Shown here in pieces: positions 42,033 through 59,432 of a DNA stretch of 64,000 nucleotides; positions within the stretch are counted from its first letter, which is position 1; every line of letters begins with the position of its first letter. Position numbers and translations under genes: made by a program. This stretch comes from an uncultured Actinomycetota bacterium. GTDB taxonomy: Bacteria; Actinomycetota; Humimicrobiia; Humimicrobiales; Humimicrobiaceae. The stretch is taken from positions 15,880-79,879 of the forward strand of contig CAZFEN010000003.1 in NCBI GenBank assembly GCA_964517765.1, given 5' to 3'. The notes under the pieces are model-generated. The model saw nothing but the letters and a program-made list of their open reading frames with translations. It made no database searches and was not told the DNA's origin.

Positions 42033-43625
42033 TTATTCCTGCTTGCTCTTCTCAACATGCATCAATCCGTAAACGACACTGTCTTCCAGTGCCTGCCAGC
42101 TGGCTTCGATTATATTTTCAGATACTCCTATGGTGCCCCAGCTTCTCTCTCCGTCCGATGATTCGATCAGAACCCTTACAACTGCCCTGGTGCCCTTCTT
42201 CTCATTTAGCACCCTTACTTTAAAGTCAGTAAGAGTGATTTTTGACAGCGTGGGATAACGGCTTTCAATCGCCTTTCTTAATGCCCTGTCCAGAGCATTA
42301 ACCGGACCATTTCCTTCTGCTGTCTCGATTATCCTGTCTCCGTTTATCTCTACTTTAACCGTAGCTTCGGAAAGCATTCTTCCATCTTCTTTCTTCTCAT
42401 TTAATACCCTGAAACTTTCCAGTTTGAAAAACTTTTTCTTCAGTCCTGTGATTTCCTTTACCAGCAGTTCAAAACTCCCATCAGCAGCTTCGAACTGATA
42501 ACCTTTATGCTCCAGATTCTGAACCCTGCTTAAGATTTCACTTACTTTCTTTAAATCATCTTCCAGATTTATCCCGAATTCCTTTGCTTTAAGAATTATG
42601 GATTTTTTACCGGATAGTTCCGAAATCAATATTTCTCTTGTATTTCCAACTGCCTCCGGGTCAACATGTTCAAATGCTTTCGGTATTTTACTTACTCCGC
42701 TTACATGCATACCACCCTTATGAGTAAAAGCATTTCGTCCGACAAATGGCTGGCCGGGATTTAAAATCTGATTTGCGGTTTCGCTGACGAATCTTGAAAG
42801 ATTGGTCAGATGTTTGAGGTTCCCTTCTTTTAGACAACTTTTTTTTAGCTTTATTTCCAGATTGGGGATTATCTGACAAAGATCAGCATTGCCGCATCTT
42901 TCTCCATAGCCGTTTATTGTTCCATGGACCATCTTTATCCCCTTTTTTACAGCTATCAGAGTGTTTGCAACTGCGCAGCCGCTGTCATTATGAAAATGTA
43001 TCCCCAGGGTTGCTTTTACACCCTTTTTTACTTTATCTATTATCTCGGTAACATCATCCGGAAGCATTCCGCCATTTGTATCACAGAGAACAAGATAATC
43101 TGCTCCTGCTTCAAGGGCTGACTTTAAAGTTTTTACGGCATACTGAGGATTCTCTTTAAAACCATCAAAAAAATGCTCCGCATCAAAAATCACTTCCGGA
43201 AAATATTTTTTTAAATATTTTATTGTGTCAAAGATCATGCTTAAATTGTTCTCCAGAGTGGTCTCTATAACCTTTTCGGCATGAAGAGCCGATGATTTGC
43301 CTACGATACATACGCTATCCGCACCAGACTGGACCAGCTGCTTTATATTCTCATCCTCTTCTGCTTTTATATTCTTATATCTCGTCATCCCGAATGCAAT
43401 TATTTTCGAATAATCGAATTTTCTCCCTTTAAGCTTCTCGAATAATTCCATTTCTTTTGGATTGGAAGCAGGGAATCCGACTTCTATATAATCAATTCCG
43501 ATATCATCGAATCTTTCGATAAGCTGCAGCTTATCGCTTACCGAAAATGATATATCTGCTCTCTGGGCACCATCTCTAAGGGTAGTATCCAGTATGTATA
43601 CTTTATCTTTCACTTGATTGTCCAT
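42033..43625 (-). CDS. cimA: Citramalate synthase (LeuA/CimA family)
   Basis: 'DTTLRDGAQ', 'HFFDG', 'LCDTNGG', 'HFHNDSG', 'AFTHKGGMHVS', regulatory 'GNGPVNALD'. Confidence 0.85.
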   Translation of the reverse strand: MDNQVKDKVYILDTTLRDGAQRADISFSVSDKLQLIERFDDIGIDYIEVGFPASNPKEMELFEKLKGRKFDYSKIIAFGMTRYKNIKAEEDENIKQLVQSGADSVCIVGKSSALHAEKVIETTLENNLSMIFDTIKYLKKYFPEVIFDAEHFFDGFKENPQYAVKTLKSALEAGADYLVLCDTNGGMLPDDVTEIIDKVKKGVKATLGIHFHNDSGCAVANTLIAVKKGIKMVHGTINGYGERCGNADLCQIIPNLEIKLKKSCLKEGNLKHLTNLSRFVSETANQILNPGQPFVGRNAFTHKGGMHVSGVSKIPKAFEHVDPEAVGNTREILISELSGKKSIILKAKEFGINLEDDLKKVSEILSRVQNLEHKGYQFEAADGSFELLVKEITGLKKKFFKLESFRVLNEKKEDGRMLSEATVKVEINGDRIIETAEGNGPVNALDRALRKAIESRYPTLSKITLTDFKVRVLNEKKGTRAVVRVLIESSDGERSWGTIGVSENIIEASWQALEDSVVYGLMHVEKSKQE

Positions 43626-43659
43626 TTCATTTATTAATATGTCATATTTTTAAAGTTGA

Positions 43660-44154
43660 TTACTTATTTAAATCTTCTTTTACGAAATTTATATATCCTC
43701 CGCTTTTTATTATCCCCTGTATAAATTCAGGCAGCGGATTTATTTCAAAAACTTTATCTCTCGTGATATCTTTGATTCTGCCGCTGCTAAAATCTACCTC
43801 CAGTTCATCTCCATCCTGGATAAAATTAGCAGCTTCCCTGCTTGAAATGACCGGAAGTCCTATATTTATCGAATTTCTAAAAAAAATTCTCGAGAACGAC
43901 GCTGCGATTATAGCTTTGACACCGCTTGTTTTTATAGAAAGAGGCGCATGTTCCCTTGAGGAACCGCAGCCAAAGTTATTGCCGGCAATTATGATTTTTC
44001 TTTCTTTTACTTTCTCCTTAAAATCCCTGTCAAGACCTTCTAAACAATGTGATGCCAGTTCTCTGTCATCTGAAGTATTCAGGTATCTTGCAGGTATTAT
44101 CACATCAGTATCGACATTATCTCCGTATTTTATCGCTTTTTCTCTTATAATCAT
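43660..44154 (-). CDS. leuD: 3-isopropylmalate dehydratase small subunit
   Basis: 'DNVDTDVIIPARYL', 'NFGCGSSREHAP'. Confidence 0.95.
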   Translation of the reverse strand: MIIREKAIKYGDNVDTDVIIPARYLNTSDDRELASHCLEGLDRDFKEKVKERKIIIAGNNFGCGSSREHAPLSIKTSGVKAIIAASFSRIFFRNSINIGLPVISSREAANFIQDGDELEVDFSSGRIKDITRDKVFEINPLPEFIQGIIKSGGYINFVKEDLNK

Positions 44155-45431
44155 TATATGACCTCCTCGGGTGTGGCAATTCTTCCGGCTATTGCAGAAG
44201 CTGCAGCTACGGCCGGACCGCTTAAGTAAACCTCGCTTTTAGGATGGCCCATCCTTCCCACAAAATTCCTGTTGGTTGTCGATACAGCCCTTTCACCTTC
44301 GGCAAGAACTCCCATATGTCCCCCCAGGCAGGGCCCACATGTTGGGGTACTTACCGCACAGCCCGAATTTATAAAAGTCTCTATATAGCCTTTTTTTAAT
44401 GCTTCAAGGTATATGTTTTGGGTAGCAGGAATTATTATGACCCTTATGTTTTTATCGACTTTTCTGCCTTCTAAAATTTCTGCAGAAATTTTTAAATCTT
44501 CCATCCTGCCATTCGTACAGGAACCAATGACTACCTGATCTATGTTTATATCTTTCAAATCCTCAGCATTTTTTGCATTCGAAGGAAGGGGAGGTGCGGC
44601 TACCTGTAGTTTTATATCGGAGCAATCTATGTTATAAATCTTTTCATATTCCACATCCGGATCGCTTCTGAATATTTTATAATTTCCATCGGATCTTGAT
44701 TTCAAAAACTCCCTGGTCGCTTCATCGACTTCGAATATTCCAAACTTCCCACCCGCTTCTATCGCCATATTAGACATAGTAAATCGGGAATCCATTGACA
44801 GTTTACTTACAGCAGATCCACTGAATTCCATAGATTTATAAAGTGCGCCTTCCACTCCGATGAGACCAATTGTATGAAGTATAAGATCCTTTCCTGTTAT
44901 CCATTTCTTTAAGTCTCCGCTGTACATGAATTTTATTGTTCGTGGTACCATAAACCAGAGTTTTCCCGTGGCCATTGCAACAGCCACATCGGTACTCCCA
45001 ACACCGGTCGAAGCTGCTCCCAGCGCTCCATAAGTACACGTATGAGAATCTGCTCCCACTATGAGATTACCGGGGAGTACCAGTCCAAGTTCGGGAAGCA
45101 GAGCATGCTCTATACCCATTTTTCCGATTTCAAAATAATTTTTGATCTCCTGTTCCCTTGCAAATTCTCTCATAAACTTACACTGCTGGGCCGATTTTAT
45201 ATCTTTATTGGGAGCAAAATGATCCGGTACTACGACTATCTTATCTCTGTCAAAAACTCTTCCCGTCCCAATTTTATTAAACTCCTTGATTGCGATTGGA
45301 AGTGTGATATCATTGCCGAGAACTATATCCACATCTGCATTTATGATCTCTCCTTCCGATACATGATCCCTGTCGCAGTGATAGGCAATTATTTTTTGAG
45401 TTATTGTCTGAGATTTCTGTTTATCGTTCAA
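44154..45431 (-). CDS. leuC: 3-isopropylmalate dehydratase large subunit
   Basis: 'DSHTCTYGA', Fe-S Cys in 'GSCTNGR' and 'CGPCLGGH', 'STTNRNF'. Confidence 0.95.
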
Positions 45432-45518
45432 CTTTAAAAATCCTTTTTCCCTTCCTGATTTTTAATTTTAGTATTTTAATTTTTTTATATTTTTCAAAAA
45501 TTAGTACTGTATATTTTT

Positions 45519-47039
45519 TCAATCGGTACTTTCTACGATTCTATTCATCGCATCAATGTAAGCCTTAATGCTTGCCTCTACAATATCTGTGCTTATACCG
45601 CTTCCCATCACTTCTGTTCCATTTGTACTTACCACTACTCTGACAGATCCCAGTGCATCTTTGCCCCCCGATACTGCTTCTATTTTATATTCTACCAATT
45701 TTGCATTCATTTTCGTTACCCTGTCTATAGCTTTAAAAGAAGCATCTACCGGACCATCACCTTCCGAAGAACCTTCATTTATTTTACCAGCTATTTCTAT
45801 ACCTACTCTGGATGAGGCACGTATATCCGAACCGCTTCTTACCTCGTAATATTTAAGCAGGAAATGTTCCGGAACTTCCCGCATTTCATTTTCTGCTATT
45901 GCCCTTACATCCTGATCATTTATTGCCCCTTTTTTCTCTGCAAGGTCCTTGAATCTTTCAAAAGCTTTTTCAAGGTCATTCTCATCAAGCCGGATTCCGA
46001 GATCTGTAAGTCTCTCCACAAATGCGTGCCTGCCTGAATGTTTACCAAGTACCAGTTTCGATGATTTTAACCCGATATCTTCGGGTTTTATGATTTCATA
46101 AGTCGATCTGTCCTTAAGCATTCCATCCTGGTGTATTCCGGCTTCATGGCTGAATGCATTTTTTCCGACTATCGCTTTATTTGGCGCTACAACGTACCCG
46201 GTAAGTGATTTTACAATACTGCTTGTTCTTATGATTTCGCCAATATTAATATCGGTATATACTCCTAAATCTTTTTTTCTGGTATCTATAATCATGGCAA
46301 TCTCTTCCAGTGAGGCATTACCGGCTCTTTCGCCAATACCATTGACGGCACATTCAATTTGCCTTACCCCGTGTTCTATTGCTATAAGTGAATTTGCAAC
46401 AGCAAGACCCAGATCATTATGGCAGTGAACACTTAATACCACGTCTTCTATCCCGGCAGTATTTTCGAAAATAAAATCTATCATTTCTCCGAATTCGTCC
46501 GGAATAGCATATCCGACCGTGTCCGGGAAATTTATTATTCTTGCGCCGTTCCTTATTGCCAGTTCAAATAATCTGCATAAAAATTCCCGGTCACTTCTGG
46601 TTGCATCCATAGCCGAGAATTCAACCAGGTCGGTATATTTAAGGCTTCTTTTTACGGCTTCCCCTGCAAGCTGCAGTACTTCTTCTCTGCTTTTCTTTAA
46701 TTGATATTTCAGGTGGATATCGGATGAAGATATAAAAGTATGTATTACTGGTTGTTCCGCACCCTTGAGAGCTTCTCCGGCCGCATCAATATCCTTGGGA
46801 TTTGCTCTGGCGAGAGCCGCGATTTTTCTATCCCTGATTTTAGCTGATATTTCTTTTACGGAATAAAAATCACCTTTTGATGATATGGGAAAACCGGCTT
46901 CTATTACGTCTACGTTTAACCTTGCGAGCTGCTGGGCTATCTCCAGTTTCTCTCTGGTATTCAGATGTATGCCCGGTGCCTGTTCGCCATCCCGTAATGT
47001 TGTATCAAATATATAAATTTTATTTTTCTTATTTTCCAT
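45519..47039 (-). CDS. leuA: 2-isopropylmalate synthase
   Basis: 'DTTLRDGEQ', 'HCHNDLGLA', 'GERAGNA', 'HEAGIHQDG'; start re-set to ATG 47039. Confidence 0.93.
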   Translation of the reverse strand: MENKKNKIYIFDTTLRDGEQAPGIHLNTREKLEIAQQLARLNVDVIEAGFPISSKGDFYSVKEISAKIRDRKIAALARANPKDIDAAGEALKGAEQPVIHTFISSSDIHLKYQLKKSREEVLQLAGEAVKRSLKYTDLVEFSAMDATRSDREFLCRLFELAIRNGARIINFPDTVGYAIPDEFGEMIDFIFENTAGIEDVVLSVHCHNDLGLAVANSLIAIEHGVRQIECAVNGIGERAGNASLEEIAMIIDTRKKDLGVYTDINIGEIIRTSSIVKSLTGYVVAPNKAIVGKNAFSHEAGIHQDGMLKDRSTYEIIKPEDIGLKSSKLVLGKHSGRHAFVERLTDLGIRLDENDLEKAFERFKDLAEKKGAINDQDVRAIAENEMREVPEHFLLKYYEVRSGSDIRASSRVGIEIAGKINEGSSEGDGPVDASFKAIDRVTKMNAKLVEYKIEAVSGGKDALGSVRVVVSTNGTEVMGSGISTDIVEASIKAYIDAMNRIVESTD

Positions 47040-47145
47040 ATAGACCAACTCACCTTTATAATATTAGAGTCCTCTGCTGCTAGATTCTTATAGAAATCTT
47101 TTCTAAAAATCTTTACTTAGAAAGAAGTTTCTTTTTTAAATCTTT

Positions 47146-48735
47146 TTAATAAAGAGTAACTATTTTTATATTTTTAAAACCTGAAAGTTTTTTAAATTCC
47201 TCAAGCATTTTAGGGGTTACCTCATTGTCCAGATTTAAACCCATTACCGCATCTCCACTCATTTTTTTTCTCCCTACATGCATAGAGGCAATATTTACGT
47301 CCAGCTTACCAAAAGCAGTTCCTATCTTTCCGATCTGACCCGGGATATCCTCATATCTTATAAATGCCATAAACTTTGAAGGAACCATATCTATTTCAAA
47401 CTTATCAATAGCAATAAATCTTGGTGTGTCTTTCTTACCGGTCGTTGCGCCGGAGATTGAAAGCTCACTTTCCTTTCCTTTACCCTCCAGAGCAATCAAA
47501 TTTATGAAATCTTTCGACTGACTGCTCTTTACTTCTTTTACTTTTAGTCCCATTTCTCTTGCCAGTAGATCGACATTTACCAGATTGATATTTTCTTCAG
47601 AATATTTTTCCAGTATCTTTACCAGAATGATCGAAGTCAATACTCTGACATCATATTCGGATACTTTTCCATAATAGCCTATCTTCAGACTGTCCAGGTT
47701 GCCTTCAAATAGATTTATAAACAAACTTCCCAGATTTTCACATAACTCGAAGAAAGGAGATAGTATATCGATCAGCTCAGGTCTTACAACAGGTGCATTG
47801 ACCGGAAATGAAGCAGACTTTCCGCCAAGGACATCTATAACCTGGTCCGCAATAGTGATTCCCGCCCTGTCCTGAGCTTCGGTGGTCGATGCTCCCAGGT
47901 GAGGTGTGCAGACTACTTCTTCAAGTTTAAAAACAGGAGAATCGGTACATGGTTCCGATTCATAAACATCCAGCGCCGCTCCGCCTATCTGTCCATCCTT
48001 GATTGCTTCTGCCAGATCTTTTTCCACAACAATGCCACCCCTTGCAACGTTTAATATTATCGTTCCTTTTTTCATTTTATAAAATGCGGCTCTGTCAAAC
48101 ATCCTCAGAGTGTCTTTATTTTTGGGTAGATGTATAGAGATAAAATCGGCCTCTTTATATATATCTTCAAGCTTTTCGGCTTTTTTTATTTCAAGCTGTT
48201 TAAATCTGTCTTCCGACACAAAAGGATCATAGGCAATAATTTTCATGCTCAGACCTATTGCTTTTTTTGCAACCAGCCCGCCAATCTGTCCGAAGCCTAC
48301 AATACCAAGCGTTTTTCCTTCTAGCTCAATACCCTTGAATTTTGATTTCTCCCATCTGCCGTTCTTAAGTGAAAAATTTGCTTCAGGGATTTTCCTTACC
48401 AGAGAAAGCATAAGAGCTATTGTATGCTCCGCAACGGTAACTGCATTACTTGTCGGAGCGTTTACTACTACGATACCTTTTTTAGTTGCTGCGCCGACAT
48501 CCACATTGTCTACTCCTATGCCTGCCCTTCCGATAATCTCGAGCTTATCAGATGCATTAATAACATCTGCCGTTAGTTTTGTGGCGCTTCTTATTATTAT
48601 GGCATTTACACCTTTAATCTCTTCTTTAAGCTTTTCCGGTGTAAGGCCTTTTTTCTCCTCAACAATAAAATGCTCCTCAAGCTTCTTTTTTGCATCAGCT
48701 GAAATCCCATCGGTTATCAATATTCTTTTATTCAT
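47146..48735 (-). CDS. serA: D-3-phosphoglycerate dehydrogenase (with ASB and ACT domains)
   Basis: 'RAGIGVDNVD', 'GFGQIG', 'NVARGG', 'PHLGAST', C-terminal ACT 'DIPGQIG'. Confidence 0.95.
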   Translation of the reverse strand: MNKRILITDGISADAKKKLEEHFIVEEKKGLTPEKLKEEIKGVNAIIIRSATKLTADVINASDKLEIIGRAGIGVDNVDVGAATKKGIVVVNAPTSNAVTVAEHTIALMLSLVRKIPEANFSLKNGRWEKSKFKGIELEGKTLGIVGFGQIGGLVAKKAIGLSMKIIAYDPFVSEDRFKQLEIKKAEKLEDIYKEADFISIHLPKNKDTLRMFDRAAFYKMKKGTIILNVARGGIVVEKDLAEAIKDGQIGGAALDVYESEPCTDSPVFKLEEVVCTPHLGASTTEAQDRAGITIADQVIDVLGGKSASFPVNAPVVRPELIDILSPFFELCENLGSLFINLFEGNLDSLKIGYYGKVSEYDVRVLTSIILVKILEKYSEENINLVNVDLLAREMGLKVKEVKSSQSKDFINLIALEGKGKESELSISGATTGKKDTPRFIAIDKFEIDMVPSKFMAFIRYEDIPGQIGKIGTAFGKLDVNIASMHVGRKKMSGDAVMGLNLDNEVTPKMLEEFKKLSGFKNIKIVTLY

Positions 48736-48794
48736 ACTTTTTTCCTCTATAAATTGTTTTCATACTTTTTATCAGATTCTCCCAATTTTATCGG

Positions 48795-49958
48795 TTATTT
48801 TAGATAATTGTTTTCCACAAATATTCTTTCGGCTTCTGATATACCCGAACCTATTTCAAGTTTATAGCCCAGTTCCCGTAATGTTATCTCCAGCGCCGAT
48901 ATCGCGACAATAATATCAAAGATCCCAACATATCCCAGATGTCCTATCCTTATGATCTTCCCGGTAAGCTTACCCTGTCCGCCTGCAATGGTCACTCCGT
49001 ATTTAACTCTCATGATCTTTGTAAGTTCTTTGGCATCTATTCCTTCAGGTACCATTATTGAAGTCACAGAAAAACCTCTTTTGGCTTCATCCTTCACTAA
49101 AAGCTGAAGTCCTATTTTTTCTATTGCTTTCTGTGTTGCCAGTGCAAGTATCCTGTGTCTTTCAAATACATTTTCGAGACCTTCCTCAAATATCATATCC
49201 AGTGCTTTGTTCATGGCTACAATTATTGATATCCCGGGAGTCCATGGTGTCTGAGGCGGTGTTTTCTGTGAATAATTTTTGGCTGCCGCCAGATCAAAAT
49301 AAAAACGGGGAGTATCTGATTTTTCATTTAGCTTCCAGGCTTTTTCACTTACACTTATGAATGCGGCCCCTGTCGGTGCACTCAGTCCTTTCTGAGATCC
49401 TCCTATCACGACATCCAGACCCCATTCATCTGTCCTGAGATCCGATGCTCCAAGCCCGCTTATCACATCCGCAATAAGAATTGCAGGATAATTTTTTACA
49501 ATATCCGCTATTGCTTTTATGTCATTTATAACACCGGTTGACGTCTCGCTAAACTGAACCATGACTCCTTTAATATCGGAATTATTATCCAGAGCTTTCT
49601 TTATATCTTCGGGATTTGCTGCATCTCCCCACTCGTAATCAAGGGAAATAACTTCCAGACCGAATTTACTGCTAATTTTTTTGAATCTTTCTCCAAAATT
49701 TCCGACACTCACAACAAGTACTTTTTCCCCTCTGGAAAAGAAGTTTGTTACTCCCGCTTCCATACCTCCTGTACCCGAAGAAGTCAGTATAAAAAGATCA
49801 TTAGTGGTTTTAAAAAGTTTTTTTAATTTTTCTGTGACCTCTATAAATATTTTTGAGAACTCCGGGGATCTATGATGCATAAGAGGTCGGGCATGTTCCA
49901 TAAGCACTTCCTCGGATATCGGAGTAGGACCCGGAGTCATTATGTATTTTTTTACCAT
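48795..49958 (-). CDS. Class-V PLP aminotransferase (probable SerC substitute)
   Basis: 'MTPGPTP', 'SSGTGGME', 'ETSTGV', PLP Lys in 'GSQKGL', 'RIGHLG'; immediately upstream of serA. Confidence 0.85.
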   Translation of the reverse strand: MVKKYIMTPGPTPISEEVLMEHARPLMHHRSPEFSKIFIEVTEKLKKLFKTTNDLFILTSSGTGGMEAGVTNFFSRGEKVLVVSVGNFGERFKKISSKFGLEVISLDYEWGDAANPEDIKKALDNNSDIKGVMVQFSETSTGVINDIKAIADIVKNYPAILIADVISGLGASDLRTDEWGLDVVIGGSQKGLSAPTGAAFISVSEKAWKLNEKSDTPRFYFDLAAAKNYSQKTPPQTPWTPGISIIVAMNKALDMIFEEGLENVFERHRILALATQKAIEKIGLQLLVKDEAKRGFSVTSIMVPEGIDAKELTKIMRVKYGVTIAGGQGKLTGKIIRIGHLGYVGIFDIIVAISALEITLRELGYKLEIGSGISEAERIFVENNYLK

Positions 49959-50064
49959 TTTTTAAGCTTCCCTTTCTAATAGCTTTGTATTAAAAATAAT
50001 ATTTTAAATATATCTTTCTTTTTATTAAGATTTTAAAATATATCTTCTTTTGTACTACTCTAAT

Positions 50065-50547
50065 TTAGCCTTTAATACCCCTGCTGCAGGCAATTTTACC
50101 GGTTCTGACCAGTTCAAGTATTCCAAACGGCCGCAGAAGATCTCCCAGAGCTCTCACTTTAGTACTGTTCCCGGTGATTTCAATCATCAAAGATTTTTTT
50201 GCAACATCCACGATATTTGCCCTGAAAACGCTTACTATTTCCAGCACTTCAGGTCTGGTTTTAGAATCAGCACTTACTTTTATTAAAACCAATTCTCTTT
50301 CAACAATGTTTAATGGATCCAGCTCCTGTATTTTTATTACATTTATTAACTTATAAAGCTGTTTAATGATTTGTTCGATGCTGTGCTCCTCCGCATTCAC
50401 TTCAAGGGTGACTCTGGAAATTTTTTCATCATCAGTAGGACCGACTGCCAGACTTTCAATGTTAAATCCCCTTCTGCTGAAAAGCCCGGATATTTTTGCC
50501 AGTACTCCTGCTTTATTCTCTACTAAAACCGATATGATATGGCTCAT
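50065..50547 (-). CDS. ilvN: Acetolactate synthase small subunit
   Basis: 'LVENKAGVLAKISGLFSRRGFNIESL', 'ELVRTG'. Confidence 0.96.
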   Translation of the reverse strand: MSHIISVLVENKAGVLAKISGLFSRRGFNIESLAVGPTDDEKISRVTLEVNAEEHSIEQIIKQLYKLINVIKIQELDPLNIVERELVLIKVSADSKTRPEVLEIVSVFRANIVDVAKKSLMIEITGNSTKVRALGDLLRPFGILELVRTGKIACSRGIKG

Positions 50548-50567
50548 AATGCTCCACCTTTCATATT

Positions 50568-52277
50568 CTATACACCTTCTAACATTTCGCTTTCTAACAT
50601 TTCACTTATCGGAGAACCCGGGGCCACCATAGGGTAAACGTTTTCTTCTCTGTCTATCCAGAAATCTACAAGGACAACGTTATTTATCTCCAGAGCCTTT
50701 TTTATGGCACCTTCGACCTCTTCCTTTTTTTTAACCCTTATACCAACCCCGCTATATGCTTCCACAAGCTTTACAAAATCTACACAATTATAGATGCAGG
50801 TCTGGGAATATCTTCTTTTAAAGAAAAATTCCTGCCATTGCCTTACCATGCCCAGATATCCATTATTGAGAAGCATTATCTTTATATTTATTTTATTAGT
50901 AACTGCCGTAGAAAGTTCCTGGGACACCATCTGAATACTGCCATCTCCAGCTATATCTATTACCGTTTTATCCGGTCTGCCGATTTTTGCACCTATCGCT
51001 GCAGGAAGTCCGAATCCCATGGTACCCAATCCTCCTGAAGAAACCAGTGTTCTGGGTTGAGTGAATTTATAAAATTGCGCTGCCCACATTTGATTCTGCC
51101 CCACTTCCGTACAGATAATGGCATCGCCTCCGGTCAGTTCATATATTTTCTCTACAACAAAAGCAGGCTTTATCTTACTGGAATTCTTATCATATTTAAG
51201 AGGGTAAGCATTCTTTAAATACTTAATCCTTGACAGCCACTCTTTCCTGTCGGGAATTCCTTTTTTTTCGATATAATTTTCATACTCGTTCTTTAAATCA
51301 GTAAGAATGATTTTTGCATCTCCCACAATAGGTATTAATACTCTGACATTCTTACCAATTTCCGCAGGATCTATATCTATGTGAATTATCTCGGCATTTG
51401 GTGCAAATTCAGATAGCTTACCAGTAACCCTGTCGTCGAATCTAACTCCTACTGCAATAATAAGATCTGCTTCGGTAAACGCAAGATTAGCATATTTGGT
51501 TCCATGCATTCCGGCCATACTTAATGACAGCTGATTGTCTTCCGGAAAAGAGCCCATTCCCAGAAGTGAAGTGATAACCGGAATTTTTGAAACCTTTACA
51601 AATTTTCTTAAAATATCACTTGCCCCCGAAGAGATGACTCCTCCTCCGGCAAAAATTACTGGCTTTTTACTTTCGGCTATTTTTTTTGCCGCCTGTTTGA
51701 CCTGTTTGAGATTGCCTTTGATTGTAGGTTTATATCCCGGAAGATATATTTCTACCTTAAAGTTTTCATCTATAAGATCTGTTGTTACATCAAGCGGAAT
51801 ATCTATCAGAACCGGACCCGGTCTACCGGTAGATGCAAGTTTAAAGGCTTCTTTTATTACTTTTGGCAGTTCCCTGACATCTTTAACAAGATAATCGTGC
51901 TTTATTACAGGTGCAACTATACCGGTTATATCCGCTTCCTGAAAAGCATCTGTACCTATCTGTGCTCTGCTTACCTGCCCGGTTATTGCCACCATGGGTA
52001 TTGAATCCATATATGCATTTGCTATACCTGTTACAAGGTTGGTTGCTCCCGGACCGGAAGTGGCAATACAAACCCCGGTTTTTCCTGTAACTCTTGCATA
52101 TCCGTCTGCTGCATGTGCCGCTCCCTGTTCATGCCTTACCAGTATATGCCTTATATCACTGTCAAACAAAGCATCATACAAGGGAATTACTTTGCCTCCG
52201 GGATATCCGAATATTACTTCTACTCCCTCTTCCTTTAAACATTTTATTATCATTTGTGCGCCGGTTATTTTAGCCAT
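50568..52277 (-). CDS. ilvB: Acetolactate synthase large subunit
   Basis: 'RHEQGAAHAADGYAR', 'TSGPGATN', 'VGQNQMW', TPP motif 'GDGSIQM..LNNGYLGMVRQWQ'. Confidence 0.97.
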   Translation of the reverse strand: MAKITGAQMIIKCLKEEGVEVIFGYPGGKVIPLYDALFDSDIRHILVRHEQGAAHAADGYARVTGKTGVCIATSGPGATNLVTGIANAYMDSIPMVAITGQVSRAQIGTDAFQEADITGIVAPVIKHDYLVKDVRELPKVIKEAFKLASTGRPGPVLIDIPLDVTTDLIDENFKVEIYLPGYKPTIKGNLKQVKQAAKKIAESKKPVIFAGGGVISSGASDILRKFVKVSKIPVITSLLGMGSFPEDNQLSLSMAGMHGTKYANLAFTEADLIIAVGVRFDDRVTGKLSEFAPNAEIIHIDIDPAEIGKNVRVLIPIVGDAKIILTDLKNEYENYIEKKGIPDRKEWLSRIKYLKNAYPLKYDKNSSKIKPAFVVEKIYELTGGDAIICTEVGQNQMWAAQFYKFTQPRTLVSSGGLGTMGFGLPAAIGAKIGRPDKTVIDIAGDGSIQMVSQELSTAVTNKINIKIMLLNNGYLGMVRQWQEFFFKRRYSQTCIYNCVDFVKLVEAYSGVGIRVKKKEEVEGAIKKALEINNVVLVDFWIDREENVYPMVAPGSPISEMLESEMLEGV

Positions 52278-52389
52278 CTTTTTTTCACTCCCTATATTTG
52301 TAACAACTTTATAACACTAAAAATGTTTTGATAATTATATCATTATTTTATTCTTTTTTAAAAAATAAAATTCTAAAAAATTTTTAAAA

Positions 52390-54048
52390 TTATTTTAATA
52401 CTGCCCCTTTTGCTGCCGAAGATACCAGCCTTGAATATCTGGCAAGATAACCTTCTTTTATCTTAGCTTCCGGGGGGTACCAGTTTTTCATTCTTTCTTT
52501 GATTTCCTCATCACTGACAAGGAGATTTATCTTTTTTTCAGGTATATTTATTTCAATTATATCTTCTTCCTTTACAATACAGATCGGACCCCCTGCCTGA
52601 GCTTCAGGTGATATGTGACCAATAGAAGCTCCTCTTGTGGCGCCGGAAAATCTTCCGTCTGTAATCAGGGCAACTTCTTTATCCAGTCCCATTCCTGCTA
52701 TGGCCGATGTTGGGGCAAGCATTTCTCTCATTCCGGGTCCCCCTCTGGGACCTTCATATCTTATTACTACTACATCTCCGGAATTTATTTTTCCGTCCAT
52801 TATAGCTTCAAGAGCTTCTTCTTCGCTATCAAATACCCTCGCTTTTCCTTTATGATTATACATCGAAGGATCCACGGCTGATTTTTTGACAACACACCCA
52901 TCGGGTGCGAGATTCCCGTATAATATTGCGATACCCCCGTCCTTTAAATAAGGATCCGAAACTTCTCTTATGACCTCTTTATTTATAATATCTGCCCCGT
53001 ATATATTATCTTTTACTTTTTTACCACTTACAGTTTGTAAGTCGCCATTTATCAGATTATTTTTTAAAAGCTCATTCATAACCGCTTCTACTCCGCCGGC
53101 CCCGTATAGATCTTCCATATGATGTTTACCTGCAGGGCTTATTCTGCATAAATTAGGAGTCCTTCCGCTTATTTCATTTACAAGATCCAGAGTAAATACG
53201 ATTCCTGCTTCATTAGCAATTGCAGGTAGATGCAGAACAGTATTTGTTGAGCACCCAAGTGCCATATCGACCGCAAGCGCGTTTTTTACTGCATCTATGG
53301 TTACTATATCTCTTGGTTTTATATTATTATTAACAAGATCCATGATCTTGATTCCTGTAGTTTTTGCCAGCCTTAATCTTTTAGAATAATAAGAAGGGAT
53401 GGTCCCATTTCCCGTAAGTCCCAGCCCTATTGCTTCCGAAAGACAGTTCATTGAATTTGCTGTGAACATTCCCGAGCAGCTTCCGCAGGTGGGACATGCT
53501 TCCTCTTCTATTGACTTTAAATCTTCCTCCGTATATTCACCTTTATTATATTTACCGATAGCTTCATAACATGTACTGTAATCAATGCGTTCACCTTTGA
53601 ATTCACCCGACAGCATGGGCCCTCCGCTTATTAAAATGGCTGGAATATTTAACCTTAATGCCGCCATCATCATCCCGGGAACAATTTTATCGCAGGAGGA
53701 TATAAGTACCAGACCATCAAAAGGATGTGCCATGGATACTGCTTCTATGCTGTCTGCTATTATCTCTCTGGTGGCCAGGGAATACTTCATCCCGATATGA
53801 TTCATCGCCACTCCATCACATACGCCTATTGTAGAGAATTCCTGGGGAGTGCCCCCGCCAATCCTTATTCCTGCTTTTACTGCTTTCGCAATACTCTCAA
53901 GATGCATATGACCGGGAATCAATTCATTTTCCGAATTGACAACTCCGATTATAGGCTTCTCTATTTCTTCATCGGTATATCCCAGGGATTTAAAAATAGA
54001 TCTGTGGGGCAGCCTTTCGACTCCTTTTTTCATTATATCGCTTCTCAA
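52390..54048 (-). CDS. ilvD: Dihydroxy-acid dehydratase
   Basis: 'CDKIVPG', '[10 protein letters not shown]', 'GCSTN', '[13 protein letters not shown]', 'TDGRFSG'; TTG start behind SD ACAGGAGG. Confidence 0.97.
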
Positions 54049-54128
54049 TTTTCCTCCTGTCCTCTAAAATTTATTTATAATATATTTAAACAATATAACC
54101 AATAATCTCGAGATTCTTATTAAGGATA

Positions 54129-54168
54129 TTACAGGATTATTAGGTTAAGGTAAATTACAATCCTGTAA
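54129..54168 (-). promoter_or_regulatory. Hairpin of the putative ilvD attenuator
   Basis: 10-bp perfect stem ttacaggatt / aatcctgtaa with a 20-nt loop, starting directly after the leader stop codon. Confidence 0.55.
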
Positions 54169-54321
54169 CTAGGATAGAATACCCACTGAAGCCAGTAGAC
54201 CGATTAGAATTAAAGGAATACAAACAAAAAGAGAAGTAATATTTACTTTATTACATGTAAAATGAGTGTTTAAGAAGCTATTTTTAAGTTTTTTAGTAAA
54301 AATATACTTATTTGTATTCAT
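54169..54321 (-). CDS. Putative ilvD leader peptide, 50 aa: MNTNKYIFTKKLKNSFLNTHFTCNKVNITSLFVCIPLILIGLLASVGILS
   Basis: Hand-translated ORF; 12 of the last 20 codons are Ile/Leu/Val; a second in-frame ATG lies at 54330; no clear SD. Confidence 0.6.
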   Translation of the reverse strand: MNTNKYIFTKKLKNSFLNTHFTCNKVNITSLFVCIPLILIGLLASVGILS

Positions 54322-54351
54322 AATAGTCATCGAAAATTTATTTGAAGAAAC

Positions 54352-54380
54352 ATGATAACATAGATACTTTACTAAAACAA
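54352..54380 (-). promoter_or_regulatory. Promoter of the ilv leader/operon, TTGTTT-17-TATCAT (extended -10 TG)
   Basis: -35 at 54380-54375, -10 at 54357-54352, 17-nt spacer counted. Confidence 0.55.
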
Positions 54381-54382
54381 TT

Positions 54383-54427
54383 AAAAATTTACAGGGCTTA
54401 AACCTCCCCGGCTAAACCCTGTAAATT
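54383..54427 (-). terminator. Intrinsic terminator after the protease gene
   Basis: aatttacaggg (54386-54396) / ccctgtaaatt (54417-54427) inverted repeat followed by a U-run on the - strand. Confidence 0.7.
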
Positions 54428-54476
54428 CAATCATTTATTAATACTTCTGATATTTATCTAAATCTTATGATATTTG

Positions 54477-55628
54477 TTATTCAGAAGAAACTCCCGGTTC
54501 TATAATTTTAACTTCCGTCCCCTCCTTGAACTCAACATCTTCACCTTTATTTATAGCTTCCTGCGCCTTCGACCTGTATTCCTGAGCCTGGAGATGTTTC
54601 TGATTCAGGTTCAGCACACTATTAAAGTGCTTTATGGCTTCCGTATAATATTTTAATCTGTACATAACAAGCCCCTGCCTGAACTCTTCGTCTACCATAC
54701 CCTGTTTATTGGTAACACCATTTCTGCTCAATATCTCTTTTATATCATTACTGGGTCTTAAGTAATTATTGGTCTCGTCTGTGAACATGGTAAATATTCC
54801 CACAACCTGACCGTTAGAATTTAGAACAGGTCCTCCGCTGTTTCCCGGTCTGGCATCCCCCTGGACCTGAAGGACTTCCGTACCGCTCAACATCAGCCTT
54901 CCACTTATATTACCGTTCGTTATTGTAGGATTCAGTACATTCTCCTGACCTATATCGGATGTCCACGGATATCCTATTATTGTAAGATTATCCTGTACTT
55001 CCACCATCGAAGAGTCCCCGACCATTGCACCTGAAAGAGCTTTACCTGTCTGCGGTTGAATTTTTATAAGGGCAATATCTCTCTGGTCCCAGCCACTGAA
55101 ATCTATTACCTCGGCTCTGATAAAAGTCTCGTTGTCTGCAGGATTGTCGGGTATTCCAGAACTTGCAGCATTGAACTGTACATAAACCTCTCTATCGTAG
55201 GAACCGCCTTCAAATCCCTCGACCCTTATGTTCTCATATGCCCAGTTCCAGTCGGCATCCAGCCAGTCATCCAGCTGGCTGCCATAAGTTTCGGTCAAAT
55301 AGGTGTATATCAGATCATATTTGAAATCCACTTCGCTGACCTCAACCATGTGTCCAGCTGTGATTATATGGCCCGTATCGGGATTTACGCAAAAACCTGT
55401 TCCATTAAAAGCTTCATAATAAGCATCGCTCCATACGTTATCCCAGGGATCAAGAACATACCCCCAATAATAAGTAGTTATAAAACAAACCGAGGGTTGA
55501 GTTAAAATCACCTGGTCCTGAGAAGTAAGTTCATATGAAACACTCTTTTCTTCACAGCCCATGCATGAAAAACTGATCACAAATATCAGAATCAGACATA
55601 ACAACAACCATTTAAATTTTTTACCCAT
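54477..55628 (-). CDS. Lipoprotein trypsin-like serine protease with C-terminal TPR-like helices
   Basis: Signal peptide and lipobox ('SFSCMGC'); catalytic triad 'TAGH', 'RDIALIK', 'GNSGGP'; no PDZ domain; start re-set to ATG 55628. Confidence 0.8.
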   Translation of the reverse strand: MGKKFKWLLLCLILIFVISFSCMGCEEKSVSYELTSQDQVILTQPSVCFITTYYWGYVLDPWDNVWSDAYYEAFNGTGFCVNPDTGHIITAGHMVEVSEVDFKYDLIYTYLTETYGSQLDDWLDADWNWAYENIRVEGFEGGSYDREVYVQFNAASSGIPDNPADNETFIRAEVIDFSGWDQRDIALIKIQPQTGKALSGAMVGDSSMVEVQDNLTIIGYPWTSDIGQENVLNPTITNGNISGRLMLSGTEVLQVQGDARPGNSGGPVLNSNGQVVGIFTMFTDETNNYLRPSNDIKEILSRNGVTNKQGMVDEEFRQGLVMYRLKYYTEAIKHFNSVLNLNQKHLQAQEYRSKAQEAINKGEDVEFKEGTEVKIIEPGVSSE

Positions 55629-55814: not shown

Positions 55815-56930
55815 TTAGTTATTTAAAATTCTTGTATAATATTCAATATACTTTGGTACTATCAATTTGCTATCAAAAAATTTAGCTCTTTTTCTGGCCT
55901 CTAAACCCATTTCTAATCGGATTTCCTTACTTTCAAGTATTTTCACGGCTGCTTCACTCATAGAATCGATATCTCCAGGATCAAATAAATAACCTGATTT
56001 CCCATTTTCAATTACTTCTTTTAGTCCCCCTACATTTGTTCCGATAACAGGAACCCCGCAGCTTAATGCTTCCAGTGCAGAAAGTCCGAAACCCTCACTT
56101 TTCGAAGGCAGCATATAAACATCACTGATATTAAGAAGCGGGATTATGTTTTCCTGGACGCCAAGGAAAAACGCACTACTGCCCAGATTGAATTTACACA
56201 CAAGATCCCTGATCTTGCACATATCGGGTCCATCGCCCACAAGAAGCAATTTACTTTTTACTTCTTTGCTTACTTTCTGGAATACTTTAACAATATTCTC
56301 TATTCTCTTAACCGGTCTGAAATTGGAAATATGTATAATTACTTTTTCATCCGGATCAACAAATTCCATATTTTCTCTGTTTTTTGATGTCCTTTTATAC
56401 TTTTCGGTATCTACAAAATTATAAATCACTTCCATTTTTTTATTTGTCCTGAAAATCTTTTGAGTCGTTTCTTTCAGATAATTTGAGACACAGGTAACAC
56501 CATCACTTTCCTCTATGCTGAATTTGGTAATTCTATAAAAAGACTGATGGTTACCAACAAGCGTGATGTCAGTTCCATGCAAAGTAGTTATAAATCTGAT
56601 CCTGCTCCCTATTATTTTCTTTGCCAGATAAGCTGAAGTCGCATGAGGCATAGCGTAATGCACGTGAAGAAGGTCCAATTTTTCGGATTCTATGACTTCA
56701 GCCATTTTTGCACTCAATGAAAGACTGTAAGGAGGATACTTAAAAAGTGAGTATTCCATGGTTTCTACTTCATGAAAAAAAATATTCCTGTAAAACCTGC
56801 TCAACCTGAACGGAAGGCGATAGCTTATGAAATGTATATTGTGCCCTCTTTTTGCAAGTTCGATACCCAGTTCGGCAGCTATTGCTCCACTGCCTCCGTA
56901 AGTCGGATAACAGGTCATTCCTATGTTCAT
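55815..56930 (-). CDS. bshA: N-acetyl-alpha-D-glucosaminyl L-malate synthase
   Basis: 'CYPTYGGSG..A.ELG', 'LHVHYAMPHA', 'TTLHGTDITLVG', 'HISNFRPVKR', 'EGFGLSALEA'. Confidence 0.93.
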   Translation of the reverse strand: MNIGMTCYPTYGGSGAIAAELGIELAKRGHNIHFISYRLPFRLSRFYRNIFFHEVETMEYSLFKYPPYSLSLSAKMAEVIESEKLDLLHVHYAMPHATSAYLAKKIIGSRIRFITTLHGTDITLVGNHQSFYRITKFSIEESDGVTCVSNYLKETTQKIFRTNKKMEVIYNFVDTEKYKRTSKNRENMEFVDPDEKVIIHISNFRPVKRIENIVKVFQKVSKEVKSKLLLVGDGPDMCKIRDLVCKFNLGSSAFFLGVQENIIPLLNISDVYMLPSKSEGFGLSALEALSCGVPVIGTNVGGLKEVIENGKSGYLFDPGDIDSMSEAAVKILESKEIRLEMGLEARKRAKFFDSKLIVPKYIEYYTRILNN

Positions 56931-57019
56931 ATATTCTTCTCGCTATCTACTCAGGGGGTCACGGATTTAAAAATAAACCGGTCTGGTTTATAGATAAACC
57001 GGATTCATTTCTATACTTT

Positions 57020-57760
57020 TTACTTCAAATACTTAAAAAATTCAAGAGGATCATCGATTCTTATACCGGATTCCATATAATATGGTTCCCCGTATTCTGC
57101 CTTTACTTTTAATCCCGAGCATTGATGCCTGCTGTTTACTATATTAAAGAAATACCTGGAAGCTATATGGGTAATTTCTTCTTTTGGGACATCGCTGTAG
57201 AACTGGGACGCATAAGCAGCGACCGCACTGGATTTTTGTTTATAATACTGGCTTATATCTACTATAAAACTGGGTTTGAATTCATAATGAAGCATATAAC
57301 TTATCACTGCATAGGGTCTGTGATTGTCGAGACCGGTTTTAAATTTCCTGAGGCCGGAGATAAAAATAGCATCTTTTAGCAACTTGTGGGAATTTTCATG
57401 ATCGGGATGTCTGTCTTTCCAGAAAGGTATGAGCACAAGATCAGGCCTGTACTTTCTTATGGAATTTATCACCTTCAATCTGCTTTCAGGATCGTTATTG
57501 ATATTTCCGTCTTCAAGTCCCAGATTTTCTCTGATATCCAATCCCAGGATCTTCGATGCTTCTTTTGTTTCTTTTTCTCTGGTCTCAAGGTCACCGTTAG
57601 TGGAAAGCTCAGCTCTGGTAAGATCTATTATTCCTGTGCTGTAACCTTTATCTTTTAATTTTAAGAGAAGCCCTCCGCAGCCCATTTCTGCATCATCCGG
57701 GTGAGGGCTGAAAGCAATTACATCTATTTTAATCACATCTATCATATTTACTTTTTCCAC
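57020..57760 (-). CDS. bshB1: Bacillithiol biosynthesis deacetylase BshB1
   Basis: 'HPDDAEMGCGG', 'DLTRAELS..G', 'DRHPDH'; lies between bshC and bshA; alternative ATG start at 57745. Confidence 0.9.
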   Translation of the reverse strand: MEKVNMIDVIKIDVIAFSPHPDDAEMGCGGLLLKLKDKGYSTGIIDLTRAELSTNGDLETREKETKEASKILGLDIRENLGLEDGNINNDPESRLKVINSIRKYRPDLVLIPFWKDRHPDHENSHKLLKDAIFISGLRKFKTGLDNHRPYAVISYMLHYEFKPSFIVDISQYYKQKSSAVAAYASQFYSDVPKEEITHIASRYFFNIVNSRHQCSGLKVKAEYGEPYYMESGIRIDDPLEFFKYLK

Positions 57761-57767
57761 TTATCTT

Positions 57768-59432
57768 CTAAATAATTTCCAAAAATTTATGTGAAAAATC
57801 CATTGGCTTTATGGCAGAATCTATATCATTTAAAAACTCAAATCCATATTTATTCAGATAACTGAATATATTAATCTCACGCTCCTGTAAATTACCATTC
57901 GGAAATATATTTGTATAAATTTTCTTTACACTTTCTACAACAAATTCATCCTGTTTTTTTAACCCGGAATATAGTTTCTTGTTGAGAACCTTTATCTCTT
58001 TTTTTAAATTTCTTTTAATTCTATCAAAAGAATCCGAAATATTCATTTCAATATCTAAAAATGCTTTTTCCAGTTTCTCAAGTCTTTCACTGATATCTTT
58101 TTCCAGATCCAGCATTGACCCTTCCAGATCGATCTCCATTCTCTTGCTTATTATTTGTTTCGTTATCTCTTCTTCGTCCGGGACTAACATTGCATCGGTA
58201 ATTTTAAACTTTTTAAAAAGTTTCCTTATTTTCCTTTCGATTATAGTTGCAGAAAATCTTGGATATATTACCGGCATTTTTAAACCATAAAGATCATATA
58301 GGGGTCTTAACTGAGCAAAGTAACTTATTTCCCCTGGTCCGCAAATCGAACATAAAACCGGCAGCAGACTATCCTGAAACAAAGGTCTTAATGCTGCATT
58401 CAGGCTAATACCTGCCGGACTACTTGCTATTAAATCCCAGAATTCCTTTTTGTTATACACTTTATTTCCAATCTTAAATGAATCTTCACCATCCGGGTAT
58501 ATTCTTTTCCTTGTGCCGCCCTCACAATAGAAAAAATCAAGTATTTCCGCTGCTGAGTTTAACTGGCTGTGATAACCGCTGCTATTTAATTCTTCACCAG
58601 TTGAGTTTATGAGACCGCTTATCTTGTTATGATTATTTACATCAGATTTCAGCAGGTCCTGACCTGATTTCTTTAGATTATTATCAGCGGGATCTATAAT
58701 AACAAGGCCATGATCCGAAAACATCCTGGTAACCACACCTGAAAAAAAAGCAGCAATATTTAACCTGCCGCCGCTACTTGAACAATTCTTCATGATATCC
58801 GATAGACTATTTTTTAAAAAATTGATAATTCCGGATTTAAAACCAGTCGGGTAAAGAAGATCCTCAAGTCTTTTAATCATATCCTTTAATCTGTCTTCCG
58901 GAAGATCGATATCCGAGTATCTTGTCTTCCTGTCAAAACCTGAAAGATCAAGTTTAATATTTAAAATCTCACCATTAATTATATTAAGATTATCGACCTG
59001 ATCTGCGCTGTCATCATCAGATGCGTTCCAGAAACATGGAATCACCGGTATCTCTAATTCCCTGTGAAAAAAATTACTCAATTTCAATATGGTCAGTATC
59101 TTAAATATCATAAACAGAGGACCTGTCAAAAAACCGGGTTGCTGTCCGCCTATTATTACCACTGATTTCCTGTTTTTAAGTTTATCTATATTTTCTAAGG
59201 TTTTTTGGCTGCAGCCAATCTTTTTATTGTAATTTTCTAATATGCTGCAAATTTCTGTCCTTTTTTTTTCATCATAGTCCGCTTTAATATCAAAAACTCT
59301 TTTTTTATAACTTTTTATATCCCTGTAATCATATTCATAAAATTTACTGATATTTTTATAATCAAAAATATAATCCAGGAGCAGTTTATTATAATAAAAT
59401 TTCGCGGTCCTTATTTCTTTTGATTCGATCAT
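57768..59432 (-). CDS. bshC: Bacillithiol biosynthesis cysteine-adding enzyme BshC
   Basis: 554 aa; 'GGQQPGFLTGPLF', 'WNASDD', 'GPGEISYFAQL', coiled coil, 'FPNGNLQERE'. Confidence 0.9.
   Translation of the reverse strand: MIESKEIRTAKFYYNKLLLDYIFDYKNISKFYEYDYRDIKSYKKRVFDIKADYDEKKRTEICSILENYNKKIGCSQKTLENIDKLKNRKSVVIIGGQQPGFLTGPLFMIFKILTILKLSNFFHRELEIPVIPCFWNASDDDSADQVDNLNIINGEILNIKLDLSGFDRKTRYSDIDLPEDRLKDMIKRLEDLLYPTGFKSGIINFLKNSLSDIMKNCSSSGGRLNIAAFFSGVVTRMFSDHGLVIIDPADNNLKKSGQDLLKSDVNNHNKISGLINSTGEELNSSGYHSQLNSAAEILDFFYCEGGTRKRIYPDGEDSFKIGNKVYNKKEFWDLIASSPAGISLNAALRPLFQDSLLPVLCSICGPGEISYFAQLRPLYDLYGLKMPVIYPRFSATIIERKIRKLFKKFKITDAMLVPDEEEITKQIISKRMEIDLEGSMLDLEKDISERLEKLEKAFLDIEMNISDSFDRIKRNLKKEIKVLNKKLYSGLKKQDEFVVESVKKIYTNIFPNGNLQEREINIFSYLNKYGFEFLNDIDSAIKPMDFSHKFLEII

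Follow-up and report, generated by a model that had tools for sequence, protein, structure and literature searches.

A putative branched-chain amino acid attenuator with a long leader peptide and a covarying hairpin upstream of ilvD in a Humimicrobiia bacterium

Leader-peptide attenuation of branched-chain amino acid (BCAA) operons is textbook biology, and to our knowledge nearly all characterized BCAA leader-peptide attenuators end in an intrinsic terminator. Two described examples act directly at ilvD. The Staphylococcus aureus ilvD attenuator consists of a 26-aa peptide and a terminator (PMC5794164), and Listeria Rli60 places a 13-aa peptide and a terminator/antiterminator pair upstream of ilvD (PMC5864092). 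The actinobacterial LEU element precedes leuA and features a pure Leu run and a conserved pseudoknot; the codons of its upstream open reading frame were proposed to pair with the Shine-Dalgarno (SD) sequence of the following gene, so that a base stem closes off a compact fold (PMC1262725). Here we describe a leader that precedes ilvD in a 64,000-nucleotide stretch of DNA (the window) from an uncultured Actinomycetota bacterium (contig CAZFEN010000003.1). An earlier reading of its sequence (the original prediction) had assigned this leader a promoter, an open reading frame (ORF) rich in Ile, Leu, and Val codons, and a stem whose downstream arm would block the ilvD SD when BCAAs are plentiful. 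The leader, the hairpin, and the ilvD operon all lie on the minus strand of the window, and the proposed relationship to the operon holds: the ORF is situated between the promoter and ilvD, with the same arrangement in 15 loci.

The sequence comparisons described below indicate that this is probably a BCAA-responsive leader-peptide attenuator, sensing tRNA charging by ribosome stalling. We favor a ribosome-mediated attenuator of the ilvD-ilvBN-serA-leuACD-cimA operon that would sense charged Ile-, Leu-, and Val-tRNA and most likely act on ilvD translation initiation at the ribosome-binding site (RBS), and we place the probability of this explanation at about 0.5.

Relatives were collected in three ways. 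Genome and metagenome scans yielded two close loci (L001 and L081); an ilvD protein search with contig look-ups added thirteen further loci, ten of them distinct, with 82-94% ilvD identity; and a profile search with the aligned peptides returned 23 called homologues, of which two among the most divergent were fetched as L174 and L175. Comparative counts refer to 15 distinct loci unless stated otherwise, and dN/dS estimates (nonsynonymous over synonymous divergence, pooled Nei-Gojobori) to 13. All 18 fetched loci have a small ORF immediately before ilvD. The gene further upstream varies among relatives (peptidase, bshA, or other), while the ORF stays linked to ilvD. With the window peptide alone as the query, the sole match is the peptide itself.

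The ORF from the first ATG spans 54330..54169 and encodes 53 aa, this first ATG being confined to the window clade. The start conserved among relatives, the ATG at 54321, yields the 50-codon peptide MNTNKYIFTKKLKNSFLNTHFTCNKVNITSLFVCIPLILIGLLASVGILS, which ends at a TAG stop (54171-54169). The 50-codon ORF of the original prediction is present, and its frame is open in 15/15 relatives, while the other two frames hold 3-9 stops each. Indels in the ORF are all multiples of three across the 15 loci and the 23 called peptides.

The last 20 residues in the window are LFVCIPLILIGLLASVGILS, with Leu encoded by CTA at codons 39, 42, and 49; the Ile/Leu/Val count and the three CTA codons claimed originally are reproduced exactly. 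Every one of the 15 relatives keeps such a run (Table 1). It is BCAA identity, and not hydrophobicity alone, that is retained: across the 15 relatives the last 20 residues are 71% I/L/V and 2% F/M/W/A/Y, and substitutions at hydrophobic positions of the tail occur almost only among I, L, and V. Codon choice is also distinctive. CTA makes up 27% of Leu codons in the leaders vs 6% in 42 window genes (4.5-fold), ATT accounts for 68% vs 28%, and GTC for 41% vs 17%.

The second conserved element is a hairpin (P2) that begins one base after the stop codon. In the window it forms the perfect 10-bp stem described in the original prediction (54159-54168 with 54129-54138), closed by a 20-nt loop, and it is both conserved and covarying. 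Its folding energy is −9 to −12.5 kcal/mol in 15/15 sequences. Nine of the ten pairs are conserved, with 88.7% of cells paired vs 30-52% when the partner columns are slid. Compensatory changes are found at two pairs (A-U/U-A/U-G, with U.U intermediates, and U-A/C-G/U-G), and the covariation score exceeds that of 499/500 shuffles. The apical part differs in both sequence and length (a 16-29-nt apical region, with only 3-4 G-C pairs in the hairpin). Because of this variability P2 was ruled out as a dimeric DNA operator for a transcription factor, the arms being spaced 20-31 nt apart. The P2 motif was likewise rejected as a regulon signal, as the two other matches in the window both fall within coding regions. 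One called peptide, P0138 (78 aa), reads through the leader stop (…VGILSWFQDYY…, consistent with TGA to TGG), extending the ORF through the hairpin; this may be a naturally occurring variant, in which the mechanism should be broken, or else a sequencing error.

The leader contains four complementary cores, namely UCCU at the ORF end (segment 1), AGGA in the 5' arm (segment 2), UCCU in the 3' arm (segment 3), and AGGA in the SD (segment 4), and the stop codon separates segments 1 and 2. Under the favored explanation, when BCAAs are scarce the ribosome would stall at codons about 33-49 and cover the pyrimidine-rich ORF end, leaving the 5' arm free. P2 would then form and hold the UCCU-containing 3' arm, and the strong ilvD SD, with its weak TTG start, would stay accessible with the operon ON. 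When BCAAs are plentiful the ribosome would reach the stop, melt the 5' arm, and leave; the pyrimidine segments set free in this way, either the 3' arm with the following tract or the ORF end or both, would mask the purine-rich RBS and turn the operon OFF. Because P2 begins one base after the stop, its 5' arm would be melted by a terminating ribosome. As P2 would form when the ribosome stalls upstream, in starvation, it would have to be the ON structure. The switch logic of the original prediction thus survives in part: since the stop codon abuts the 5' arm, a hairpin that forms on stalling and means ON is, we infer, the only reading with the right sign, but the specific anti-SD pairing that it invoked is unsupported. 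The output most likely lies at ilvD translation initiation, without a canonical terminator. RBS masking rather than transcription termination is the best-fitting reading of the read-out, although we hold it with somewhat less than even confidence.

The mutually exclusive pairings differ in how they behave among relatives. P2 (2:3) shows covariation; 1:2, 3:4, and 1:4 are complementary but either invariant or not conserved. In the window, TCCTGT (54136-54131) is indeed complementary to ACAGGA (54060-54055), which overlaps the SD GGAGGA (54057-54052, minus strand). As a conserved read-out, however, this 6-bp pairing fails, with the fifth pair (G-C) found in only 5/15 relatives, plus one G-U. The pairing is a clade-specific detail, not a conserved mechanism. 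The search for stem covariation in relatives that was suggested at the outset is borne out for P2, at two pairs, but not for 3:4. A helix between the ORF end and the RBS (P1; UCGGU.UUCU.UCCU with AGGAGGAA.AUUGA) has an energy of about −10 kcal/mol in most relatives, and the ORF end is among the four best RBS partners in 13/13 relatives scanned. Two points spoke for P1, the frozen state of the last four codons and its prediction by RNAalifold with ribosum scoring; the plain RNAalifold consensus lacks it, and the helix is weakened in L174, L161, and L173. We have rejected it as an established mask. The pyrimidine tract TATCCTTAAT that follows P2 is also predicted to pair with the ilvD SD in minimum-free-energy folds of the window. 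In a local folding model the mean SD accessibility over relatives is 0.21 for the free leader, 0.53 for the stalled state (segment 1 masked), and 0.41 for the terminating state (segments 1 and 2 masked), with six relatives showing the expected drop from stalled to terminating.

Several observations weigh against RBS masking, or against the leader as a whole being what we propose. Outside the 5/15 relatives noted above only a generic UCCU:AGGA match remains, so that the 6-bp pairing is confined to the window clade, and 3:4 shows no covariation (a 3-column slide pairs 77.8% vs 82.2%). P1 is no stronger than helices with shuffled ORF ends, of which a fraction of 0.06-0.82 are at least as good. 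The pairing of UUCU.UCCU with AGGAGGAA occurs in 96% of cells and never covaries, being invariant. P1 is largely lost in L174, where ilvD starts with ATG and the spacer differs, though the ORF end is unchanged there. Full-leader folding with a sliding ribosome mask gives an SD accessibility of ~0.25-0.35 at every position, and equilibrium folding of the full leader reveals no consistent accessibility change across relatives. Folding with ribosome-footprint constraints, one of the checks first suggested, predicts no switch in the window, where SD accessibility is 0.19 for the free leader, 0.24 for the stalled state, and 0.26 for the terminating state. There, the SD is predicted to be paired with UCCUU just 3' of P2 as long as the leader is free or the ribosome stalled, and ACAGGA to be paired with the 3' arm once the ribosome terminates. 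The non-BCAA residues C34, G47, and S50 are conserved and nearly invariant. The leader also lacks an SD, a caveat that had been raised originally; the absence is real but the caveat is not a strong one, as ~30% of the longest-ORF starts in the window (start positions unverified) likewise lack an SD. Finally, (A)UUCUUUUA or UAUCUUUUA directly follows P2 in 11/15 relatives, giving 6 U in 9, which hints at termination or pausing.

This U-rich tail is one argument that the same leader peptide acts on transcription, with P2 and the tail (or a downstream A/U-rich hairpin) serving as a weak terminator or pause site, or with Rho as the effector. In the latter version Rho would load on the pyrimidine-rich, ribosome-free end of the leader, and stalled ribosomes would prevent premature termination before ilvD; Rho has been proposed for terminator-less actinobacterial leader peptides (PMC1262725). 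The S. aureus and Listeria ilvD attenuators also use terminators (PMC5794164, PMC5864092). Moreover, a scan of fetched ilvD loci for I/L/V-rich leader ORFs gave 34 forward-strand matches (11 from the Humimicrobiia clade) vs 1 in the reverse-strand control. The matches from other phyla include Desulfobacterota, Veillonella, Sutterellaceae-type loci, and others, and in all eight that were examined (L088, L027, L012, L024, L153, L018, L052, and L140) the leader ORF precedes a textbook terminator, the stems reaching 19 bp at most and the U-runs 6-10 nt. The window clade presents a different picture. Its tail is UAUCCUUAAU, with no terminator found there; in the window the stem gives way to UAUCCUUAAUAA, whose first 9 positions include 4 U, and a terminator scan of the window leader detected no terminator-like site before ilvD. 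The original statement that there is no U-run accordingly applies to the window clade and not to the 11/15 relatives with U-rich tails, in which the pyrimidine tract could be the tail of a weak terminator. The long apical region and the few G-C pairs of P2 are ill suited to a terminator, and P2 in that role would invert the logic, because it would form on an upstream stall, the starvation state. The candidate antiterminator (ORF end:5' arm, 1:2) extends over just 4-7 bp, shows no covariation, and is uncompensated when the 5' arm changes; it was rejected. We regard a transcriptional read-out as unlikely.

The dN/dS of the leader ORF is 0.63 vs 0.07 for ilvD, with 0.66 for codons 2-30 and 0.38 for codons 31-46. 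The N-terminal half, with a dN of 0.41, diverges about as much as the non-coding spacer (67% identity). These values disfavor the possibility, also mentioned in the original prediction, that the C-terminus is the transmembrane helix of a small membrane protein. In such a scheme the ORF would encode a tail-anchored protein, with a Lys/Arg-rich N-terminus and a C-terminal helix, co-transcribed with ilvD, and the role of the hairpin would be in RNA stability or processing. In favor of this, relatives preserve the length, the order of a polar followed by a hydrophobic part, and C34, G47, and S50; there is a weak match to the transmembrane-like Pfam family Saf_2TM (E = 0.005, below the family cut-off); and some gene callers annotate the ORF as a hypothetical protein. 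The tail, however, consists almost purely of I, L, and V, a composition not typical of transmembrane helices, and it uses rare codons. Those non-BCAA codons that are conserved fall within stretches that do not change even at synonymous sites, a pattern indicative of constraint on the RNA. An exhaustive search of 1.8 billion representative proteins found four homologues, all peptides of this leader family, and none away from the ilvD context. A membrane protein thus appears quite improbable. From the pattern of substitutions, the leader ORF appears to be translated, with a product that is not under protein-like selection.

The frozen blocks deserve a closer look. Codons 47-50 have no synonymous differences (pS = 0) in the relatives analyzed, a value reached by 0/547 four-codon windows of ilvD, and codons 34-37 are likewise nearly frozen. 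Leader dS is 0.48 vs 1.14 in ilvD, indicating constraint at the nucleotide level. The last six residues and the stop, which is followed by U, are almost invariant, and 47-50 codons would fill the exit tunnel, so the conserved C-terminus (LVGILS-stop) could be an arrest peptide that, like TnaC or SpeFL, senses a free amino acid within the ribosome tunnel and stalls at termination, thereby controlling the RNA downstream. We give this very little weight: selection on the peptide cannot account for the synonymous-site invariance, and a stall at the stop under plenty needs a repressive output, for which no such structure is conserved. Equally slim is the chance that the leader is mainly a structured cis-regulatory RNA that binds a protein or ligand, with the ORF secondary, for despite low synonymous divergence and several conserved complementarities (the leader 5' untranslated region [UTR] with the ilvD start, the leader start with codons 34-36, and a weakly covarying hairpin in codons 22-30), the strict conservation of reading frame argues for translation, clear covariation is confined to P2, the covariation term of the consensus fold is just −0.96 kcal/mol, and there is no Rfam match.

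As regards these complementarities, the 5' UTR CAAATAAATTTTCGATGACTATT can pair with the ilvD start region AUUGAGAA in 98% of cells across the 15 sequences, without covariation, and the leader start pairs with codons 34-36 in all sequences; both are invariant and hence uninformative. The ORF-internal hairpin in codons 22-30 (54232-54258) is clearest in L081 (ACCGGTAAT...ATTACCGGT) and has four pairs with compensatory changes; 78% of cells are paired vs 23-63% when slid, and its covariation score is attained by 24/500 shuffles. This RNA structure, rather than the peptide, may explain why the residues GN..IT look "conserved". A hairpin in codons 13-21 was discarded, since its covariation is no greater than in shuffles. 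In addition, TGTATTCCTTTAATT (54208-54222, ORF codons 34-38) resembles TGTAATATCCTTAAT (54119-54133, after the 3' arm). In the window clade the two copies share CC, in most other relatives CT, and in L162 each of them is altered; this parallel change may be due to chance, as it rests on one or two events. A T-box riboswitch was ruled out, and no other RNA family was matched in the leader, either at gathering thresholds or with permissive settings (E <= 10 within 53900-54600). The locus was also looked for in RNA-seq runs, none of which contained it.

The coordinates of the leader and its surroundings are collected in Table 1.

Table 1. Features of the ilvD leader region in the window (numbering of the 64,000-nt stretch)
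Feature	Coordinates	Strand	Basis
Intrinsic terminator of the upstream trypsin-like peptidase gene: GC-rich 13-bp stem (ACAGGG...CCCTGT), then AAATTTTT	54383..54422	-	Sequence
Promoter: -35 TTGTTT (54380-54375), 17-nt spacer, -10 TATCAT (54357-54352)	54352..54380	-	Sequence
A/U-rich leader 5' UTR CAAATAAATTTTCGATGACTATT, without SD	54322..54345	-	Sequence; SD energy +0.3 kcal/mol
Leader ORF, 50 codons and TAG, from the conserved ATG	54169..54321	-	15 loci and 23 called peptides, all 47-50 aa
Regulatory tail, codons 31-50	54172..54231	-	12/20 Ile/Leu/Val in the window, 12-15/20 in relatives
Codons 47-50 (GGT ATT CTA TCC), candidate anti-RBS segment (segment 1)	54172..54183	-	UUCU.UCCU complementary to AGGAGGAA
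P2 5' arm TTACAGGATT (segment 2)	54159..54168	-	One base after the stop codon
P2 3' arm AATCCTGTAA (segment 3), holding the UCCU anti-SD core	54129..54138	-	Folding, covariation
Pyrimidine tract after P2, TATCCTTAAT	54119..54128	-	Minimum-free-energy folds, tail composition
Variable A/U-rich spacer, with a long imperfect hairpin (P3) ending just 5' of the SD	54061..54118	-	Folding; mean pairwise identity 67%
ilvD RBS ACAGGAGGAAAATTG: strong SD (GGAGGA), weak TTG start (segment 4)	54046..54060	-	Sequence
Putative regulated operon: ilvD, ilvB, ilvN, class-V aminotransferase, serA, leuA, leuC, leuD, cimA	42033..54048	-	NCBIfam matches

The promoter elements of the original prediction are found where they had been placed, and the -10 is extended by a TG at 54360-54359 (TG-n-TATCAT). 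A consensus promoter scanner did not call this promoter, whose -35 agrees at only 3/6 positions. The block TTAATTGTTTTAGT...CTATGnTATyAT is near-invariant in 14/15 relatives and absent in L168 (1430-1626), where, without the block GTTTTAGT...TATyAT, the terminator of the upstream gene leads directly into the leader 5' UTR. We ruled out leaderless translation on reading the sequence, as there is no suitably positioned -10 element. An 18-nt direct repeat, AAATAAATTTT(C/A)GA(T/G)GAC, occurs at 54326-54343 and 54059-54076 (minus strand) with 16/18 positions identical. The copies sit just upstream of the leader ATG and of the ilvD SD, are only partially conserved beyond the window clade, and may serve both starts as an A/U-rich standby site or translation enhancer. 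There is also an inverted repeat of 21 nt (90% complementary) that joins 54280-54300 (ORF codons 8-14) with 54368-54388 (the -35 region); its upstream arm is mostly 5' of the -10 and probably lies outside the transcript.

Downstream, ilvD starts with TTG at 54048, and the NCBIfam ilvD model aligns from residue 1. Its RBS GGAGGAAAATTG is retained in 13/15 relatives, the exceptions being L001 (GGAGGAGAATTG) and L174 (AAGGAGAAAAAATG). In the latter locus (2650-2812), the most divergent relative, ilvD starts with ATG and the spacer, with an insertion of ~29 nt, is 159 nt long; the ORF end and the hairpin are unchanged. Within the operon leuA is the sixth gene. The genes for serA and a class-V aminotransferase lie inside the ilv-leu operon (47146-49958, minus strand), and cimA, encoding citramalate synthase, is the last gene (42033-43625, minus strand), which suggests threonine-independent isoleucine synthesis under the same leader. 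In L172 (5998-6479) the ilvN call is split into two ORFs (78 and 79 aa), reflecting either a frameshift or an assembly error.

On the other side, the upstream order is the trypsin-like peptidase gene with its own GC-rich terminator, followed by bshA, bshB, and bshC homologues. The terminator isolates the leader as a separate transcription unit and is kept in relatives that share the same upstream gene. The bacillithiol genes (a bshA-like GT4, bshB [PIG-L], and bshC; 55815-59432, minus strand) occur here in an Actinomycetota lineage, a phylum better known for mycothiol. The closest ilvD proteins carry the names Ca. Hydromicrobium and Humimicrobiaceae (Actinomycetota, class Candidatus Humimicrobiia), and DNA of the locus is present in salt-marsh metagenomes. 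The ~50-aa "hypothetical proteins" that precede ilvD in Humimicrobiia metagenome-assembled genomes should be labeled leader peptides.

Returning to the attenuator that we favor, ilvD leader peptides as such are already known, and what varies here is the long SD-less leader, the BCAA run that continues to the stop, the covarying hairpin at the stop, and the lack of a canonical terminator in the window. The leader, deeply conserved in Humimicrobiia, a class without cultured members, keeps the sensing half of an attenuator, with rare Ile/Leu/Val codons and a stop that abuts a covarying hairpin, and does without the canonical output half. That it is a terminator-less, purely translational BCAA attenuator with redundant anti-RBS segments is a tentative proposal and, taken in full, a doubtful one. 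If the output is RBS masking, the locus would be a clean natural case of amino-acid-sensing translational attenuation.

The classical BCAA attenuators (E. coli ilvL, ivbL, and leuL; C. glutamicum ilvBNC, PMC11857589) resemble this leader in having an ORF with a cluster of Ile/Leu/Val codons, often rare ones, a stop codon between RNA segments 1 and 2, and a hydrophobic peptide that is not conserved as a protein. Their leaders are about 14-32 codons in length vs 47-50 here, and in the present case the BCAA run reaches the penultimate codon, with neither an SD nor a GC-rich terminator and U-run. The S. aureus and Listeria leaders share the position directly before ilvD as the first ilv-leu gene, and neither they nor this leader is a T-box. 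They possess an RBS and a demonstrated terminator/antiterminator, both of which are missing here, and there is no sequence similarity. The ilvD leaders of other phyla are alike in position and in a peptide motif (…ISL[IL][IL][IL]LV[VG]G[VI][IL]… vs …SLLILVGILS here), but their peptides run 5-30 residues beyond the I/L/V run and their terminators are strong. In several Desulfobacterota-type loci the CCTCGT bases of the motif pair with a downstream ACGAGG.

As to the read-out, the proposed sequence of stalling, RNA re-pairing, and SD exposure is that of ermC/cat translational attenuation. Those systems are drug-induced and rely on short leaders and a local SD hairpin, in contrast to the distant (70-120 nt) and redundant candidate masks found here. 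The LEU element (PMC1262725) shares the actinobacterial setting, the lack of a terminator, and the idea that regulatory codons pair with a downstream SD. The analogy drawn in the original prediction holds to that extent, but the present leader is located at ilvD rather than leuA, its codons are mixed I/L/V, and the base stem is statistically unsupported; no pseudoknot was identified here, where only nested structures were predicted, and we do not claim membership. Should our reading prove true, a LEU-element-like principle, which has so far been predicted and is experimentally ambiguous, would be acting on a nine-gene ilv-leu-cimA pathway, and the Humimicrobiia leader would provide an experimental handle on this long-ambiguous actinobacterial idea.

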